Positions 4,691 through 40,556 of a DNA stretch of 42,999 nucleotides are shown here, one piece after another. This DNA is from Kagunavirus LM08P2: the sequence record OZ035738.1. One strand, written 5' to 3'. The translations under genes and the position numbers were made by a program. Under the pieces are notes generated by a model. It did not search any database. It was not told where the DNA came from and saw nothing but the letters and a program-made list of their open reading frames with translations. Positions within the stretch are counted from its first letter, which is position 1. The number at the start of each line of letters is the position of its first letter.

Positions 4691-4743
4691 GTATTCCAGT
4701 TATTCCACTCAATTGTAAATGTTGGAATAAACTATTCGAATAG
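4691..4743. promoter_or_regulatory. Cluster of TGGAATA/TATTCCA repeats upstream of promoter at 4744
   Basis: TATTCCA at 4692-4698 and 4701-4707 with inverted partner TGGAATA at 4723-4729; similar TGGAATA pair at 5485-5512. Confidence 0.4.
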
Positions 4744-4772
4744 TTGACTTTTCACTAAAAATGTGCTAAGCT
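4744..4772 (+). promoter_or_regulatory. Promoter TTGACT-N17-TAAGCT (TG-extended), copy 1
   Basis: TTGACTTTTCACTAAAAATGTGCTAAGCT; nearly identical sequence at 36084-36112. Confidence 0.5.
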
Positions 4773-9761: not shown

Positions 9762-10153
9762 GTTTCGCGCTTGATGTCTCTAAGTTCGTGGAAAAAGCGA
9801 AGAAGAACCCCGAGAAGGTGATGCGTCAGGTGTCTATCAAGCTGTTTTCCGCTATTATAAAGGCGACGCCAGTTGATACCGGTCGTGCGAGAAATAATTG
9901 GTTTGCGTCTGGCAGTACTCCGTCACAGGAAACTACCACCTACGGTGCACCGCAAGGAACGGCTACCATACAGCGTGTTACTGCGGTTATAAACACCGCT
10001 ACAGACTGGAGTGAGTTCACGCTGACAAATAACCTGCCGTATATACAGCGGCTGGAGTATGGCTGGTCACAACAGGCGCCAGCTGGGGTTGTCAGGACTA
10101 ATGTGTCTCGCTTCCAGCAACTCATTAACGAAGAAGCCAACAAGGTGAAATGA
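9758..10153 (+). CDS. HK97 gp10-like neck/tail completion protein
   Basis: 131 aa; ATPVDTGRARNNWF motif resembles the DTGxLRNS signature of the HK97 gp10 family. Confidence 0.5.
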   Translation: MSFALDVSKFVEKAKKNPEKVMRQVSIKLFSAIIKATPVDTGRARNNWFASGSTPSQETTTYGAPQGTATIQRVTAVINTATDWSEFTLTNNLPYIQRLEYGWSQQAPAGVVRTNVSRFQQLINEEANKVK

Positions 10154-10566
10154 TGGGCTACTTTGAGGACTTAACCAAAGCGTTCGATGTGCCGCTGGTA
10201 GCCTTCGGAACCGCCAACGGCATCAAGGTTGCGCTTGAAAACATCGACGCGCCGACATCAACCGATACGCCGTATCTGGCGAGTTACATGTTGCTGGCGG
10301 ATACGGAACAGGCTGATTTGTTCTTCACGGAACAACGCGCCGGTGTTTATCAGGTCGACATTAACTACGCATCGGTGAAAGGTAGCGCGCCAATCAATAA
10401 AATGGCAGACTTACTTAACACGGCGTTTAAAGCAGGTAAGTCATTTTCACGTAACGACATCTGCGCCGAGGTTCAATCGGTAAGCCTGGGGCCGCTGATT
10501 GTAGAAAACGGATGGGCCAAAAGACCATTGTCAATTAACTTTATTGCATTCACCAAGAGGCTGTGA
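10150..10566 (+). CDS. Hypothetical tail completion protein
   Basis: 138-aa ORF overlapping neighbours, between neck and major tail genes. Confidence 0.4.
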   Translation: MMGYFEDLTKAFDVPLVAFGTANGIKVALENIDAPTSTDTPYLASYMLLADTEQADLFFTEQRAGVYQVDINYASVKGSAPINKMADLLNTAFKAGKSFSRNDICAEVQSVSLGPLIVENGWAKRPLSINFIAFTKRL

Positions 10567-26548: not shown

Positions 26549-26863
26549 TTATAATTCCTTATATTGTTGGGGTATGTGCTTACTATAATAGTCTGCTATT
26601 AGGGTGTCAATCTGTTTTATCGAACCAACGACAAAAACATTCGCGCCACGTTTACGCATCCGCTCGTGCTCGCGTAACTGGTGTGGGTCTGGCTTCGTGC
26701 TTTCATCTTTCTTAACCTCAACGAACCAGATGATGCCGCCGGGGAGGATTACCAACAGGTCGGGCGCTCCGTTTCGGCCCTCATACACTATCTTACGAAC
26801 GAGGCCCCCCAGGGCCTCGAATCGGTCTTTCGCGTATTTCTGTACGCGGCCCTCTTTAGTCAT
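26549..26863 (-). CDS. VRR-NUC domain nuclease
   Basis: PD-(D/E)XK-like core GAPDLLVILPGGIIWFVEVKK; start uncertain (ATG 26863 or TTG 26878). Confidence 0.55.
   Translation of the reverse strand: MTKEGRVQKYAKDRFEALGGLVRKIVYEGRNGAPDLLVILPGGIIWFVEVKKDESTKPDPHQLREHERMRKRGANVFVVGSIKQIDTLIADYYSKHIPQQYKEL
26582..26610 (-). promoter_or_regulatory. Sigma70-like promoter, family 1 (TTGACA-N17-TATAGT)
   Basis: On minus strand TTGACACCCTAATAGCAGACTATTATAGT; lies inside the 3' end of the VRR-NUC gene. Confidence 0.5.
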
Positions 26864-32292: not shown

Positions 32293-32347
32293 ATTTCCGA
32301 CCCTCAGTTTGGTGCCCTCACGTATGAGGGCACCATAAGTTAAGTAG

Positions 32348-32836
32348 TTATTCTTCTTCGAAATACTTGTTCTTGATTGCCGTCAGGCGTTCCAGGTATT
32401 CGGCCAGGTCTTCGTCTTTAATCGCGGCAATCTTCATCTTCTTACCGGTGAACTCTTCCAGCAGTTCATCGGAATCATCGCACGCGGCATCGCTCGGACC
32501 TTCATTAATCGCATCGTCGATAGCCTGAATCTGATCACGAAGAGACTGGTAATCGACTTCTTCTTTCTCTTCTTGCGGCTCTGGCGTTGGCTCCTCTACT
32601 TTAGGTTTACGCGGCTTGCGTTTCGGCTTCTCTTCTTCTGCCGGTTTAGTGTCGACGAGGTCTTCACCTTCTACCGTGATTTCTTTTGTCGCTTCTTTCG
32701 CAACAACATCACGAACACTATCTGCGATGTTTGCATCTGCCTTAAGTTCATACACAGGTTTTTTCGCGCTATTCGCAGCAATCAGTTCATGCGCAACTAC
32801 GAAACGTTCCAGTAATTTTAAGAATTGGTCTAACAT
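32348..32836 (-). CDS. Highly acidic protein with central basic/Pro-rich linker
   Basis: 162 aa; D/E-rich termini with KPKRKPRKPK segment; first gene downstream of promoter 32868-32897; SD GAGGAG. Confidence 0.45.
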   Translation of the reverse strand: MLDQFLKLLERFVVAHELIAANSAKKPVYELKADANIADSVRDVVAKEATKEITVEGEDLVDTKPAEEEKPKRKPRKPKVEEPTPEPQEEKEEVDYQSLRDQIQAIDDAINEGPSDAACDDSDELLEEFTGKKMKIAAIKDEDLAEYLERLTAIKNKYFEEE

Positions 32837-32867
32837 TTGTTTCTCTCCTCTCGTTTGGTATGGGCTA

Positions 32868-32897
32868 ACTATAATAGCGAACTATTCATGTTGTCAA
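32868..32897 (-). promoter_or_regulatory. Sigma70-like promoter, family 1
   Basis: On minus strand TTGACAACATGAATAGTTCGCTATTATAGT (18-bp spacer). Confidence 0.5.
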
Positions 32898-32961
32898 TGG
32901 GCTTTCCTAAAATAATTAATATGGTACTATTCACATATAAACTGACTAAGGAGTAATTGAC

Positions 32962-33177
32962 ATGCAACCATCTGAACTAGGCATCCGTGTAGAACAACGC
33001 CGTAAAGAACTCGGCATCTCCCAGCGCCGTCTGGCTGTCCTGGCCGGTGTTTCCCAGGGCGCAATTAACCAGCTTGCGCTCGGGGTAACTCAGGACGTCC
33101 GCCCGGCAACGCTGTTTAAACTGGCGGAAGTGCTGGAAGTAGACGCCAAGTGGCTGGCGTTCGGTGAAGGGGCTTAA
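32962..33177 (+). CDS. XRE-family HTH transcriptional regulator (Cro/CI-like)
   Basis: 71 aa; ELGISQRRLAVLAGVSQGAINQL is a canonical XRE helix-turn-helix; strong SD AAGGAG; opposite strand to surrounding operon. Confidence 0.7.
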   Translation: MQPSELGIRVEQRRKELGISQRRLAVLAGVSQGAINQLALGVTQDVRPATLFKLAEVLEVDAKWLAFGEGA

Positions 33178-33194
33178 CGCCCCTTTCTTTTTCC

Positions 33195-35462
33195 CTATTC
33201 CAAATCTTCCTCAGTAACCACCAGCATTTCATTCGGCTCGTATATCGTCTTCGGAATCTTGTTATCCGTTATCCTGGTGTTAAGTCTGTAACGGCCAGGG
33301 ATTATCTGATTGTTTTCGTCGGTACCAGGCACAAGATACCCGGCCTCAACCATTTTCTTAATCTTCCCACGCTCTATGGCTTCTTTGGAGTTGAACGCCT
33401 TTGCGTTGGGGTCGGACTGAGCGAGCTTATTCGCTGCGGCCACCGTGATACCTTCATTGCCGTTGTAGGTTCCTTCTGCCAGTTCAAACGCTGCCAGTAT
33501 CGTGGCTTCCGAACTGTTGACGGCGTTCTCTACGGTTTTACGTACGTTTTCTTTACCTTCCTTTGTCAGCCCTTCTTCCCGCTCTTTCTCCTCGTCAGTT
33601 TTGAACGGCTCGAAGCCCCACGGCATCAGTACAAGCGCCTTGTGCGGTTCAGGCAGGTCGAGGTTTACGATTGTGCCGTATTCCTCTGTGCTACCCAGGA
33701 ACTCAACCGCGCGATACTCTTTCGGCGGCGGGGCTTCACGGAACTGTACTGACTCCAACACCATACCAACCGTCTTCTGTTGAGGCCCGTGCTTAAATTT
33801 AGAGTGGTATACGTTTATCTGGCGGTCGGTAGCGCGTTCGATTGTCAGCTCCACGTCGACGCCCGCATACAGCGCCCCACTGCCACGGGCCTTCTTTCCA
33901 CCCTTCGGCGTATGGTGGACAACGCCTACCGCAGCTTTAGTCGCATCACGTACTTCTTTCAGGATGGCAATGACTTTACCCATGCCGATTGCCGTCGATG
34001 AACTGTTCTCGTCGAACTTATCAATCGTCAGGGCCAGCGTCTGGTTAAGGGTGTCGAATGCGACCATGCCAATTGGCTCGTCACCCGCAGTTTCACGCAT
34101 TAACTTAATCAGGTTTTTCAGTTTTCCGACTTCGCCCATGTCGATAACATGTACATAATCTTTACCTTCCTCGCCATATTTAGCCGCGAGTGCATCTATA
34201 CGTGTGCGTGTAGCTGCGCCTCCCTCACCGTCGATATAGAAATGGTGGCAACGCTGGGTATCCGCCCCGGCAAACCGGTATCCGGCGGCGCTCAGGTACA
34301 TCATCCCCAGCGTATAGAACGATTTGTACGTGCCGGATTCCCCAACAATATCCCAGATACAATCTGACGGCATGTACCCCTCAACGACGAAATCAGCCTT
34401 TACCGGTTCCAGTAACTCGTCCTCCTCTGAGCCATCATCGTCTTCCAGGTCGTCGAGGCTGCATGAGACAGATTCACGCGCGCCCCAGCCGATAGCCTCG
34501 GCCACTTCACTGAACGGCAACCCGGTCGCATCACACGCGTATTTCCACACCTCTTTCGGTGACATGCCTTCGGTTGCCGTAATGTCGGTGTCGTGAATCA
34601 TGGTTACGTTCGGCGCTTCGTATCCCTCGCGCGGGAAACATAACAGGAAGTCGTCCGGGCGTGGTGTCGGGTCGCTGTAGTTTTCTGCGTGTTCTGGCGT
34701 AGCTGGCATCTTAAGGCCACGCGGCGTCATGATGCCGCCGTACTCGAATGCCAGTGCTTCAAACGCATCCGTAAACGCGGTGCGTAGTTCTTCCGGTATC
34801 TGGTAATCCGATGCACTGCTAACGTCAACGGCTGGTACACCTTCCAGTAACTCTTCCGGGTCAATCAGGTCGTTACGGCGCGACCAGATAACGGTAGAGC
34901 CAACCGGCGGCAGGTACATCGGTTGCGACAGAGTGAACCCGCTGCGGTCAGCGCCCATACCTTTGAAGAAGTGCTCCAGCAATCCGAGACGAACGCGGAT
35001 GATGTCACCACCTTCAACCGGACGCCCCAGCGGCATGACGACGCGAAAGCGCGGGGACTCATCGGCATGTGATGCTGTGGTGTAGAGGCACATCGCCTGG
35101 CGGCTGCGTTTAACCAGTTGCACCGCTTCCTGATACTCTTCCGTCGTTGCGCTGTCGAAGTCCAGATACGCCAGTGACGATTTGCTTACAGACGCGTCAC
35201 AGCGATAGAAGAAGCCTTTACGCGCTTGCTTAAAGTCACCGGTTTCCGGGTCTTTTACGGTGCTGTGCGTCGAGTCGCACGCGGCAGTGATATAGCCCGG
35301 TGCGGTCTTCGGATTAATTCCGTCTCGAACGGCATCGAGCGGCTGGAGTAGCTCTTTCAGGTCGCCCAGTGTCGCCGTGTGTGTTGTTCTGACGTTTATA
35401 TCCTTTTTCTCCGCCCGCGCGTTGCGACGTGACCACGAGTAGGATAAAATTACATCGGACAT
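33195..35462 (-). CDS. Primase-polymerase (AEP-like) fused to RecA-fold helicase
   Basis: 755 aa; N-terminal LAYLDFD and SHAD motifs resemble AEP prim-pol catalytic motifs; central GESGTYKS (Walker A) and VHHTPK. Confidence 0.7.
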   Translation of the reverse strand: MSDVILSYSWSRRNARAEKKDINVRTTHTATLGDLKELLQPLDAVRDGINPKTAPGYITAACDSTHSTVKDPETGDFKQARKGFFYRCDASVSKSSLAYLDFDSATTEEYQEAVQLVKRSRQAMCLYTTASHADESPRFRVVMPLGRPVEGGDIIRVRLGLLEHFFKGMGADRSGFTLSQPMYLPPVGSTVIWSRRNDLIDPEELLEGVPAVDVSSASDYQIPEELRTAFTDAFEALAFEYGGIMTPRGLKMPATPEHAENYSDPTPRPDDFLLCFPREGYEAPNVTMIHDTDITATEGMSPKEVWKYACDATGLPFSEVAEAIGWGARESVSCSLDDLEDDDGSEEDELLEPVKADFVVEGYMPSDCIWDIVGESGTYKSFYTLGMMYLSAAGYRFAGADTQRCHHFYIDGEGGAATRTRIDALAAKYGEEGKDYVHVIDMGEVGKLKNLIKLMRETAGDEPIGMVAFDTLNQTLALTIDKFDENSSSTAIGMGKVIAILKEVRDATKAAVGVVHHTPKGGKKARGSGALYAGVDVELTIERATDRQINVYHSKFKHGPQQKTVGMVLESVQFREAPPPKEYRAVEFLGSTEEYGTIVNLDLPEPHKALVLMPWGFEPFKTDEEKEREEGLTKEGKENVRKTVENAVNSSEATILAAFELAEGTYNGNEGITVAAANKLAQSDPNAKAFNSKEAIERGKIKKMVEAGYLVPGTDENNQIIPGRYRLNTRITDNKIPKTIYEPNEMLVVTEEDLE

Positions 35463-35520: not shown

Positions 35521-35811
35521 TTATCTATTAGCCAGACATTCCATCAAATGCGCGTACTTACGATAATAATCTACGACAATCTCATCACCGAAATACTGAT
35601 AAACGTACGCTAAGTGGTCAGAGACATCGATGGAAGCCGACATTGTGCTGAGTCTTCGGAGACTAATCAACTGTAATTCTTCTGTAACGCAAAACGGTGA
35701 ATAAGAGTCCAGCTTACAAGAAACGTTAAAGCACAACGCATATTCGCCTTGCACTAAATAAACCATATAAGCACTGTCATTTTCTTTATCGTGGAAAATT
35801 ACACCTTTCAT
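35521..35811 (-). CDS. Hypothetical protein (96 aa)
   Basis: ORF with ATGA coupling to upstream HTH gene. Confidence 0.4.
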   Translation of the reverse strand: MKGVIFHDKENDSAYMVYLVQGEYALCFNVSCKLDSYSPFCVTEELQLISLRRLSTMSASIDVSDHLAYVYQYFGDEIVVDYYRKYAHLMECLANR

Positions 35812-35976
35812 TTCACGTTCTCCTTAATCCACGCCTCAACTTTATTACGGTCAAATGTACCAGGTAAACGGCGACCCATTACTTTAACGCTGCAATCAGG
35901 AAACTTTCCACTCTTAATCCAGTTATTGATTGTCTGGCGGGTGACTCCGATTAATTCTGCAACTTCATTGATAGTC
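35808..35976 (-). CDS. Small HTH DNA-binding protein (AlpA/excisionase-like fold)
   Basis: ATG at 35976 with SD AGGAGAG; MTINEVAELIGVTRQTINNWIKSGKFP is a typical phage HTH; first gene of leftward early operon; track start 36068 is an upstream extension. Confidence 0.55.
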
Positions 35977-36005
35977 ATTTCGCGCTCTCCTGTGTAAGAT
36001 GTATC

Positions 36006-36034
36006 GAAGTATAAGGCGGTAACTTTGTAAAAGC
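36006..36034 (-). promoter_or_regulatory. Leftward early promoter TTGCTT-N17-TATACT
   Basis: Minus-strand reading TTGCTTTTACAAAGTTACCGCCTTATACT; about 30 nt upstream of HTH gene. Confidence 0.45.
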
Positions 36035-36056
36035 AACCAAAACTGAACACAAAGTT
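36017..36056. promoter_or_regulatory. Operator-like perfect inverted repeat GTAACTTTGT-N20-ACAAAGTTAC
   Basis: 10-bp perfect inverted repeat arms at 36017-36026 and 36047-36056 bracketing the -35 of the leftward promoter, between divergent promoters. Confidence 0.5.
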
Positions 36057-36083
36057 ACTAAGATACAAAAGATGCTACTGGTA

Positions 36084-36392: not shown

Positions 36393-36421
36393 TTGCACAC
36401 ACCAACATAATAGGATACTAT
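36393..36421 (+). promoter_or_regulatory. Sigma70-like promoter, family 2
   Basis: TTGCACACACCAACATAATAGGATACTAT upstream of 36456 gene. Confidence 0.5.
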
Positions 36422-36455
36422 TCACTTATAGAAACGAGACAGAGGAGTGAGGGTT

Positions 36456-40506: not shown

Positions 40507-40527
40507 TCTGTTTTCCACAATGACTAG

Positions 40528-40556
40528 TTGACTATTACCATCGACCCTATTATATT
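40528..40556 (+). promoter_or_regulatory. Sigma70-like promoter TTGACT-N17-TATATT
   Basis: TTGACTATTACCATCGACCCTATTATATT, 30 nt upstream of the 40590 gene. Confidence 0.45.

Follow-up and report, generated by a model that had tools for sequence, protein, structure and literature searches.

In phages lambda and 434, Cro turns down the early promoters P_L and P_R together with its own synthesis. The two Cro proteins differ in fold, that of lambda being a winged helix/beta arrangement, and lambda Cro works against CI in a bistable switch. Another group of well-described small XRE-family proteins, the controller (C) proteins of restriction-modification (R-M) systems, act as dimers at dyads that cover their own promoter, and the expression under their control is delayed and self-limiting. 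Here, we analysed a gene of this kind in Kagunavirus LM08P2, taking the whole 42,999-nucleotide stretch of record OZ035738.1 as the window. An earlier note, made from the letters of this DNA, had described a 71-aa Cro/CI-like gene on the plus strand inside the minus-strand replication module, which we refer to as the Cro-like gene. We found that its protein is conserved and most similar to 434 Cro, and that both promoters flanking it overlap a 14-bp dyad, AATAG-N4-CTATT, which also lies in the cores of other promoters. We tentatively read the protein as a Cro-type repressor of putative AATAG-N4-CTATT operators that would act without a CI partner or an integrase, a reading to which we give a little less than an even chance and in which the identity of the binder is deduced from sequence comparison.

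The Cro-like gene encodes a conserved protein of the 434 Cro type

The Pfam profile HTH_3 (PF01381) matched residues 11-65 of the Cro-like protein at 47.2 bits against a cut-off of 23 (E 2.3e-12), and PHROG transcription-regulator families matched it at E about 1e-10. The best solved relative by sequence was phage 434 Cro, which also has 71 aa (phmmer E 5e-7, residues 6-68). In a single-sequence AlphaFold2 (AF2) model the protein forms five helices (residues 5-17, 21-28, 32-39, 48-57 and 62-66) with a predicted local distance difference test (pLDDT) score of 84, and the top Foldseek match of this model in the Protein Data Bank (PDB) was 434 Cro, 2cro (template modelling (TM) score 0.73-0.79, 40% identity), followed by the 434 repressor N-domain, HipB, SinR and R-M controller proteins. 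The HTH_3 match and the five-helix fold, with its helix-turn-helix (HTH) at helices 2 and 3, place the protein in the XRE, or Cro/CI, type, as the earlier note had stated. Within this type it belongs with Cro and not with CI, given that it has only 71 aa and carries no C-terminal oligomerisation or S24 peptidase domain. It terminates 3 residues past the conserved WLxxGE motif. Distant relatives from IMG/VR (L059, L061 and L063) are clearly different and are 150-170 aa longer, a length that would suit CI-type repressors.

We then compared 32 distinct Kagunavirus alleles from IMG/VR. First, second and third positions varied in 20, 7 and 57 of the 71 codons, respectively, and this third-position-heavy pattern indicates purifying selection on the protein. 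The Cro-like gene is thus a real gene under purifying selection, and a dead relic was rejected on the same codon-position pattern. A foreign origin was considered and set aside, given that its GC content of 58%, against 51% for the genome, is consistent with its amino-acid composition. A tblastn search identified the protein in 562 phage records, in a syntenic position; 116 of these were at least 90% identical (94-100%, Kagunavirus), and several hundred were about 51% identical (Jerseyvirus). The gene carries the public names 'transcriptional repressor', 'transcriptional regulator Cro', 'XRE family transcriptional regulator' and 'DNA-binding protein'. No Kagunavirus-type Cro-like protein was found in any other genomic context. 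In one Jerseyvirus-type locus (L064, IMGVR_UViG_638275545_000001, 9950-10177) the frame is broken near the 5′-end, by a frameshift or a sequencing error, with the flanking promoter, dyad and terminator intact.

A domain scan covering 27 larger or regulator-candidate open reading frames (ORFs) found no CI-like partner, and the sole further HTH was that of a 56-aa HTH_17 protein. No CI-type repressor lies opposite the Cro-like gene, where the divergent 162-aa protein has no HTH, and the locus does not have the make-up of a lambdoid switch. The scanned ORFs contained no integrase or recombinase domain either, in agreement with the earlier note.

A 14-bp dyad is embedded in promoter cores

The intergenic region upstream of the Cro-like gene carries a direct repeat, TAATAGCGAACTATTCA / TAATATGGTACTATTCA, the two copies lying 45 bp apart and each forming a 14-bp dyad, AATAG-N4-CTATT (O1 and O2, Table 1). 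Perfect copies of this dyad number 7 in the genome against 0.04 expected, more over-represented than any other palindrome, and it is also the top palindrome in Jerseyvirus Shelanagig (5 copies). With at most one mismatch there were 12 sites against 1.09 expected, a number reached in none of 100 shuffles, and of a 17-mer version of the dyad there were 8 copies where 0.49 would be expected. Each of these eight copies lies between genes, within the core of a sigma-70-type promoter, and the promoters fall into two families. In the four TTGCAC-17-TACTAT promoters, of which two point leftward (4648, 13789) and two rightward (36409, 37845), the right half-site is the -10 element, and the dyad lies about 12 bp upstream of the predicted starts; in the leftward TTGACA-17/18-TATAGT promoters (26587, 30251 and 32873) the entire dyad lies in the spacer, about 18 bp upstream of the predicted starts. 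The eighth copy, the one-mismatch O2, covers the TACTAT ahead of the Cro-like gene. Overall, at least seven sigma-70-type promoters have the dyad over their core, both promoters that flank the Cro-like gene among them. Its presence in two promoter families, in both orientations and in registers 6 bp apart relative to the -10 is hard to explain by RNA-polymerase contacts alone and points to a bound factor.

The pattern of conservation was examined in the same 32 alleles. None of the 20 half-site positions of O1 and O2 varied, while four of the eight positions in the centres did (three of four in O1, one of four in O2), and across Kagunavirus loci the centres of perfect sites take 25 different tetranucleotides. 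The intergenic region as a whole was more conserved than the third codon positions of the Cro-like gene. Moreover, both Jerseyvirus and Serratia phage Tsm2 conserve the dyad. Taken together, these results argue for the dyad being a putative protein-binding operator. We found no description of a promoter-embedded dyad regulon in the searchable literature, and this regulon appears to be new, the gene itself being already known from annotation.

Two further observations concern these promoters. Most of the dyad promoters share a motif in the 5′ untranslated region, AAACGAGAGGAG. Further, one-mismatch dyads at 4739-4752 and 40523-40536 (AATAGTTGACTTTT and ACTAGTTGACTATT) overlap the -35 of rightward promoters (TTGACT-17-TAAGCT/TATATT) that precede late-gene blocks; about one such match is expected by chance genome-wide.

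Candidate binding proteins

Several features connect the Cro-like protein with the dyad. O1 and O2 bracket the divergent promoters of its own gene, and a 14-bp dyad with 9-bp half-site spacing has a geometry that suits an XRE-type dimer, as in 434 operators. In the sequence alignment, recognition-helix positions 1 and 6 keep the glutamines (Gln28 and Gln33 of 434 repressor), with Gln29 replaced by Gly, and the dyad keeps A at positions 1 and 4 as in the 434 operators (ACAA), with positions 2-3 differing; the contacts of Gln28 and Gln33 with the operator are those known for 434. The operators of close homologues outside Guernseyvirinae were also considered and set aside, the nearest characterised one, Sf101 Cro, being 434 Cro with ACAA-N6-TTGT.

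Other observations weigh against the Cro-like protein as the binder. Between the Kagunavirus and Jerseyvirus proteins identity is only about 51%, and their recognition helices (QGAINQL and QSLITHL) differ at four of seven positions, yet the dyad is shared. Cornellvirus-like promoter repeats are different and less symmetric (TATTA-N6-TAATA, TAATAC-N4-GTATTA and TTAGC-N2-GCTAA). Given this shared dyad despite differing helices, and these other repeats, the covariation of protein and dyad is suggestive but not clean. In Tsm2, the regulator's own intergenic region has no dyad. At the TACTAT promoters the -10 hexamer itself makes up one half of each site, and RNA polymerase thereby explains part of the conservation. 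The HTH_17 protein co-occurs with the dyad-rich genera, and no functional study of the Cro-like protein was found in the searchable literature, where no operator, regulon or phenotype is described for the gene either.

The Cro-like protein could therefore be a genuine HTH regulator acting locally on a different site, with the dyad read by another factor, namely the HTH_17 protein, some other phage protein so far unrecognised, or a protein of the host. The HTH_17 protein, which is Xis/AlpA-like, is confined to Kagunavirus and Jerseyvirus (442 records), exactly the two dyad-rich genera, and its gene comes first in an operon whose promoter has no dyad, which would suit an early regulator; the differing recognition helices of the Cro-like proteins and the missing dyad beside the Tsm2 gene fit this explanation as well. 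However, Tsm2 carries the dyad at four promoters and has no HTH_17 homologue, which weakens the main rival binder. HTH_17 recognition helices vary too (TRQTINNW against SPMTLNRW in K1G-type phages) with the dyad unchanged, and the two dyads that bracket the cro-like promoters count against HTH_17 or any other binder. Proteins of the Xis/AlpA type are not typically known to read 14-bp perfect dyads, which we also count against HTH_17. We consider a binder other than the Cro-like protein unlikely, though it deserves serious weight.

In favour of the HTH_17 protein there is also a published Kagunavirus RNA-seq study that names just four early genes, one of them an HTH gene; a 'specific DNA binding' gene adjoining an AAA-domain gene is given there as middle (PMC12645636). 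The study yielded no strand information and no firm match of either gene to one in the window. As a side observation on the HTH_17 gene, the program-made 86-aa ORF at 35808-36068 (minus strand, TTG start) is probably too long, since relatives and a GGAGAG ribosome-binding site favour the ATG at 35978.

The Cro-like protein might also be aimed at the host or at a partner, as an antitoxin or as a DicA/CI mimic that silences cryptic-prophage or defence genes of the host. It shows weak similarity to the HipB and HigA antitoxins, some records label its gene 'transcriptional repressor DicA' (PMC9787291), and cryptic prophages of E. coli K-12 block some Kagunavirus isolates (PMC11990801). Nevertheless, the gene stands alone in its unit, which has its own terminator and includes no toxin gene, both neighbours being on the opposite strand, which does not fit a toxin-antitoxin pair. 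Moreover, the best matches of the protein are phage Cro and repressor DNA-binding domains, the enriched dyads sit in the phage's own promoters, and no host site is tied to the protein. This explanation is highly improbable in our judgement.

Transcription signals around the Cro-like gene

The leftward promoter P_L was found by a consensus scan with 11 of 12 matches, and is one of three related leftward promoters (centres at 26587, 30251 and 32873), confirming that the Cro-like gene stands back-to-back with a leftward family promoter as the earlier note had proposed. P_L is conserved across the subfamily and, judged from its position, is predicted to drive the 162-aa gene and the genes beyond it. 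The same note had the Cro-like gene itself driven from this intergenic region, and here the evidence was mixed. A putative promoter with an extended -10-like element, TGgTACTAT, is present and nearly invariant in the 32 alleles, and it shares a GGTACTATTCAC core with the four TTGCAC-17-TACTAT promoters. However, no plus-strand promoter for the Cro-like gene passed the consensus scan, a point that also counts against the proposed repressor unit, and CTTTCC (32902-32907) makes a poor -35. In relatives the -35 box of this promoter is better, for example TTGCGT-17-TACTAT in Jerseyvirus. The Shine-Dalgarno sequence AAGGAG is also found in Jerseyvirus and in more distant lineages.

At the other end of the gene, the consensus scan detected a plus-strand terminator-like hairpin at 33166-33187. 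In plus-strand RNA this reads as GAAGGGGC-uuaac-GCCCCUUU followed by CUUUUUCCC, while the same hairpin read on the minus strand is followed by UCACCGAACG, which has no U-tract. The same U-tract asymmetry was seen in Jerseyvirus Shelanagig, where the terminator is annotated. Judged by these predicted elements, a weak promoter, a good ribosome-binding site and a terminator that works on the plus strand only, the Cro-like gene is a self-contained monocistronic unit. The plus-strand terminator suggests that the regulator transcript should stop before the primase gene, whereas the lack of a minus-strand U-tract means that leftward primase transcripts may run antisense through the regulator gene.

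The stop codons of the Cro-like gene (33175-33177) and of the convergent primase-helicase gene (33195-33197) have 17 nucleotides between them; the 18 given in the earlier note holds when counted base to base. That note also held that this architecture permits transcriptional interference or a switch, and interference or antisense control between the convergent transcripts could in principle be the main point of the locus and form such a switch. In addition to the close convergence, the arrangement is fixed in two genera, and primase transcripts that cross the hairpin may pass through the regulator gene into its promoter. On the other side, the canonical plus-strand terminator ends the regulator transcript before the primase gene, which leaves one direction only, and many Kagunavirus/Jerseyvirus loci have 200-600 bp of extra DNA at the cro/primase junction, so the tight junction is not conserved. 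Further, the regulator is co-directional with the primase in deeper lineages, its role thus predating convergence and not needing it, and there is no second regulator to give bistability. We regard interference as the main point as improbable. Of the original suggestion, interference in one direction stands as a possibility and the switch does not: with no CI-like partner found, nothing argues for a bistable switch, and repression or timing by Cro only fits better.

Gene order and evolution of the locus

In a sequence search, bases 32300-33700 showed 97.4% identity to Kagunavirus LM08P1 and matched 445 phage records, which with few exceptions come from two groups within the subfamily Guernseyvirinae, namely Escherichia Kagunavirus and Salmonella Jerseyvirus. 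The genome is laid out as is usual for these virulent siphoviruses, with a terminase, a Mu-F-like protein, a tail tube and a lysozyme, and published Kagunavirus phages are described as strictly lytic (PMC9787291; PMC12919940). Both neighbours of the Cro-like gene are minus-strand genes of the replication module, the placement that the earlier note had given. To its left lie, in order, the 162-aa gene (named '13.88 kDa late protein' in some records), a DUF2800/PD-(D/E)XK nuclease, an Enc34-type single-stranded (ss) DNA-binding protein and a family A DNA polymerase; the leftward replication block also contains an SNF2 helicase, and with it goes the AAA_25 primase-helicase.

This arrangement is not peculiar to the window, given that the same layout recurs in more than 440 Kagunavirus/Jerseyvirus records, and in many of these the gene already has an annotation as Cro, repressor or XRE. 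We sampled 64 IMG/VR loci and four GenBank genomes for covariation and synteny. The primase gene was convergent with the regulator in every sampled Kagunavirus/Jerseyvirus locus (L007-L049, L064 and L002), and the HTH_17 gene was present in all of those that reach far enough. Only L007, L026, L027, L029 and L048 lack it, and in most of these the sequence stops no more than about 2.5 kb from the regulator. In deeper lineages (Cornellvirus VSiA, PhiSTP2, Serratia phage Tsm2, L050-L058 and L062) the primase gene is downstream of the regulator and co-directional with it, and no HTH_17 gene is present, with the leftward block (162-aa homologue, nuclease, ssDNA-binding protein and polymerase) unchanged. 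This co-directional order in deeper lineages indicates that the embedded, opposite-strand look of the gene is derived, lineage-wide and not needed for regulator function. These gene orders are most parsimoniously explained by an old divergent early-control region, of which the regulator is the marker, with recombination/replication genes leftward and the regulator followed by the primase rightward, and by a later inversion or replacement of the primase cassette in the Kagunavirus/Jerseyvirus ancestor. The order so reconstructed, regulator then primase, recalls the cro-O-P order of lambdoid phages.

The primase cassette is mosaic. Six Kagunavirus loci (L011, L012, L013, L016, L021 and L033) carry a primase about 33% identical, with a cro-like gene 99-100% identical and the orientation of the primase unchanged, and the cassette is apparently still mobile. 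Serratia phage eta, which forms unstable lysogens, was considered as a relative and rejected, since only its structural module is common to the Jersey phages.

Sequence features and non-coding units

The features of the locus and the dyad copies are collected in Table 1.

Table 1. Coordinates of the Cro-like gene, its signals, its neighbours and the dyad copies in the window
Feature	Position	Strand	Remark
162-aa gene, divergent	32348..32836	-	PHROG 3127, function unknown; first gene downstream of P_L
P_L, leftward promoter: TTGACA (32897..32892), 18-nt spacer, TATAGT (32873..32868)	32868..32897	-	consensus scan, 11/12 matches
O1, putative operator, AATAGCGAACTATT	32873..32886	.	perfect palindrome; inside spacer of P_L
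O2, putative operator, AATATGGTACTATT	32918..32931	.	one mismatch to palindrome; over -10 of cro-like promoter
Putative cro-like promoter, extended -10-like TGgTACTAT (hexamer 32925-32930)	32922..32930	+	read from sequence
Shine-Dalgarno AAGGAG, 8 nt before ATG	32948..32953	+	invariant in 32 alleles
Cro-like gene, 71 aa, ATG start	32962..33177	+	single HTH_3 domain; stop codon included
Predicted intrinsic terminator of cro-like gene, GAAGGGGC-ttaac-GCCCCTTT then CTTTTTCCC	33166..33194	+	overlaps stop codon
Primase-helicase gene, convergent, 755 aa	33195..35462	-	AAA_25 domain; relatives annotated replicative helicase/primase
HTH_17 gene, Xis/AlpA-like, 56 aa	35808..35978	-	ATG at 35978; first gene of leftward primase operon
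Putative promoter of HTH_17-primase operon, TTGCTT-17-TATACT	36008..36036	-	without dyad; read from sequence; below consensus-scan threshold
17-mer copy of dyad	36408..36424	.	in rightward TTGCAC-17-TACTAT promoter
Further 17-mer copies, starts	4646, 13787, 26586, 30250, 37844		
14-bp dyad, starts	4648, 13789, 26587, 30251, 32873, 32918, 36409, 37845		

Apart from the Cro-like locus, we observed two paralogous non-coding units of about 200-230 nt on the plus strand (4744-~4975 and 36086-~36345). They have a common strong promoter, TTGACTTTT...TGCTAAGCT, are 79% identical over about 210 nt, and each closes with a GC hairpin and a T-tract. A folding energy of -85.6 kcal/mol (z -2.9) was obtained for the segment 36121-36350. 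Neither unit has an Rfam match, and a search of the window found no Rfam family. The two units are candidates for a pair of phage small RNAs.

Discussion

We propose that a 434-Cro-like single-domain HTH repressor may be the conserved regulator of a divergent early-control region in Guernseyvirinae. The protein would bind as a dimer to a 14-16 bp palindrome, (T)AATAG-N4-CTATT(c/a), present as O1 in the P_L spacer, as the imperfect O2 on its own -10 and as six further copies on other promoter cores (4648, 13789, 26587, 30251, 36409 and 37845). Accumulating from a weak promoter, the regulator would come to occupy the dyads and turn down early and middle promoters, its own promoter being repressed last through the imperfect O2. 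The terminator would shield the primase gene from antisense transcription, and leftward transcripts that run on from the primase operon may have a damping effect on the regulator. Given that neither a CI partner nor an integrase was found, such a device would damp or time the lytic cycle rather than switch between lysis and lysogeny. A bolder version is a CI-less, 'Cro-only' global timer, in which operators would be present in essentially all sigma-70-type early and middle promoters of Kagunavirus/Jerseyvirus, with at least eight sites in the window, giving a concerted shut-down, and antisense read-through from the primase operon would damp the regulator; this version we find possible but rather doubtful.

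Among the phages isolated as candidates for therapy and biocontrol against E. coli and Salmonella, those of Kagunavirus and Jerseyvirus are some of the most common. Published papers conflict on whether they encode a repressor: one lists a 'transcriptional repressor DicA' (PMC9787291), while another reports that none is present and cites this as evidence of a strictly lytic phage (PMC12919940). If the gene were shown to be a Cro-type lytic regulator without CI or integrase, this recurring safety question would be settled. One protein and one 14-bp operator would, moreover, offer a simple handle on gene timing and an aid to engineering these small genomes, and if the global timer were true, the temporal programme of widely used therapeutic phages would rest on one small repressor and a 14-bp dyad.

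GenBank entries of Guernseyvirinae hold the same gene at the same position under names only, and since it is annotated in hundreds of records, the gene itself is an ordinary, expected kind of element. Of the described systems, 434 Cro (PDB 2cro, 3cro and 1zug) is the closest. It likewise has 71 residues in a single five-helix HTH_3 domain, is the best match in both sequence and fold (about 38-41% identity), and is encoded at a divergent early promoter region adjoining replication genes; in both cases a 14-bp dyad, putative in the window, overlaps promoter cores and keeps A at positions 1 and 4 with the matching glutamines. Unlike 434, the locus described here has no CI, no three-operator O_R array, no integrase and no lysogeny, its half-site is AATAG instead of ACAA, and its putative sites lie over at least seven promoters genome-wide, whereas 434 has two control regions. 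Lambda Cro resembles the proposed role, in that it is a small early repressor which turns down the early leftward and rightward promoters and itself during lytic growth, but it does so in opposition to CI, while here the fold is 434-like and no CI partner was seen. R-M controller proteins (C.AhdI, C.BclI and C.Esp1396I) are alike in size and fold (Foldseek TM about 0.7), and their delayed, self-limiting expression can be likened to the role proposed here. However, they use paired C-boxes to activate one operon at first and repress it later, and they serve an R-M operon instead of a phage genome; given that all sites in the window overlap a -10 or a spacer, only repression is predicted for the Cro-like protein, unlike for the C proteins.

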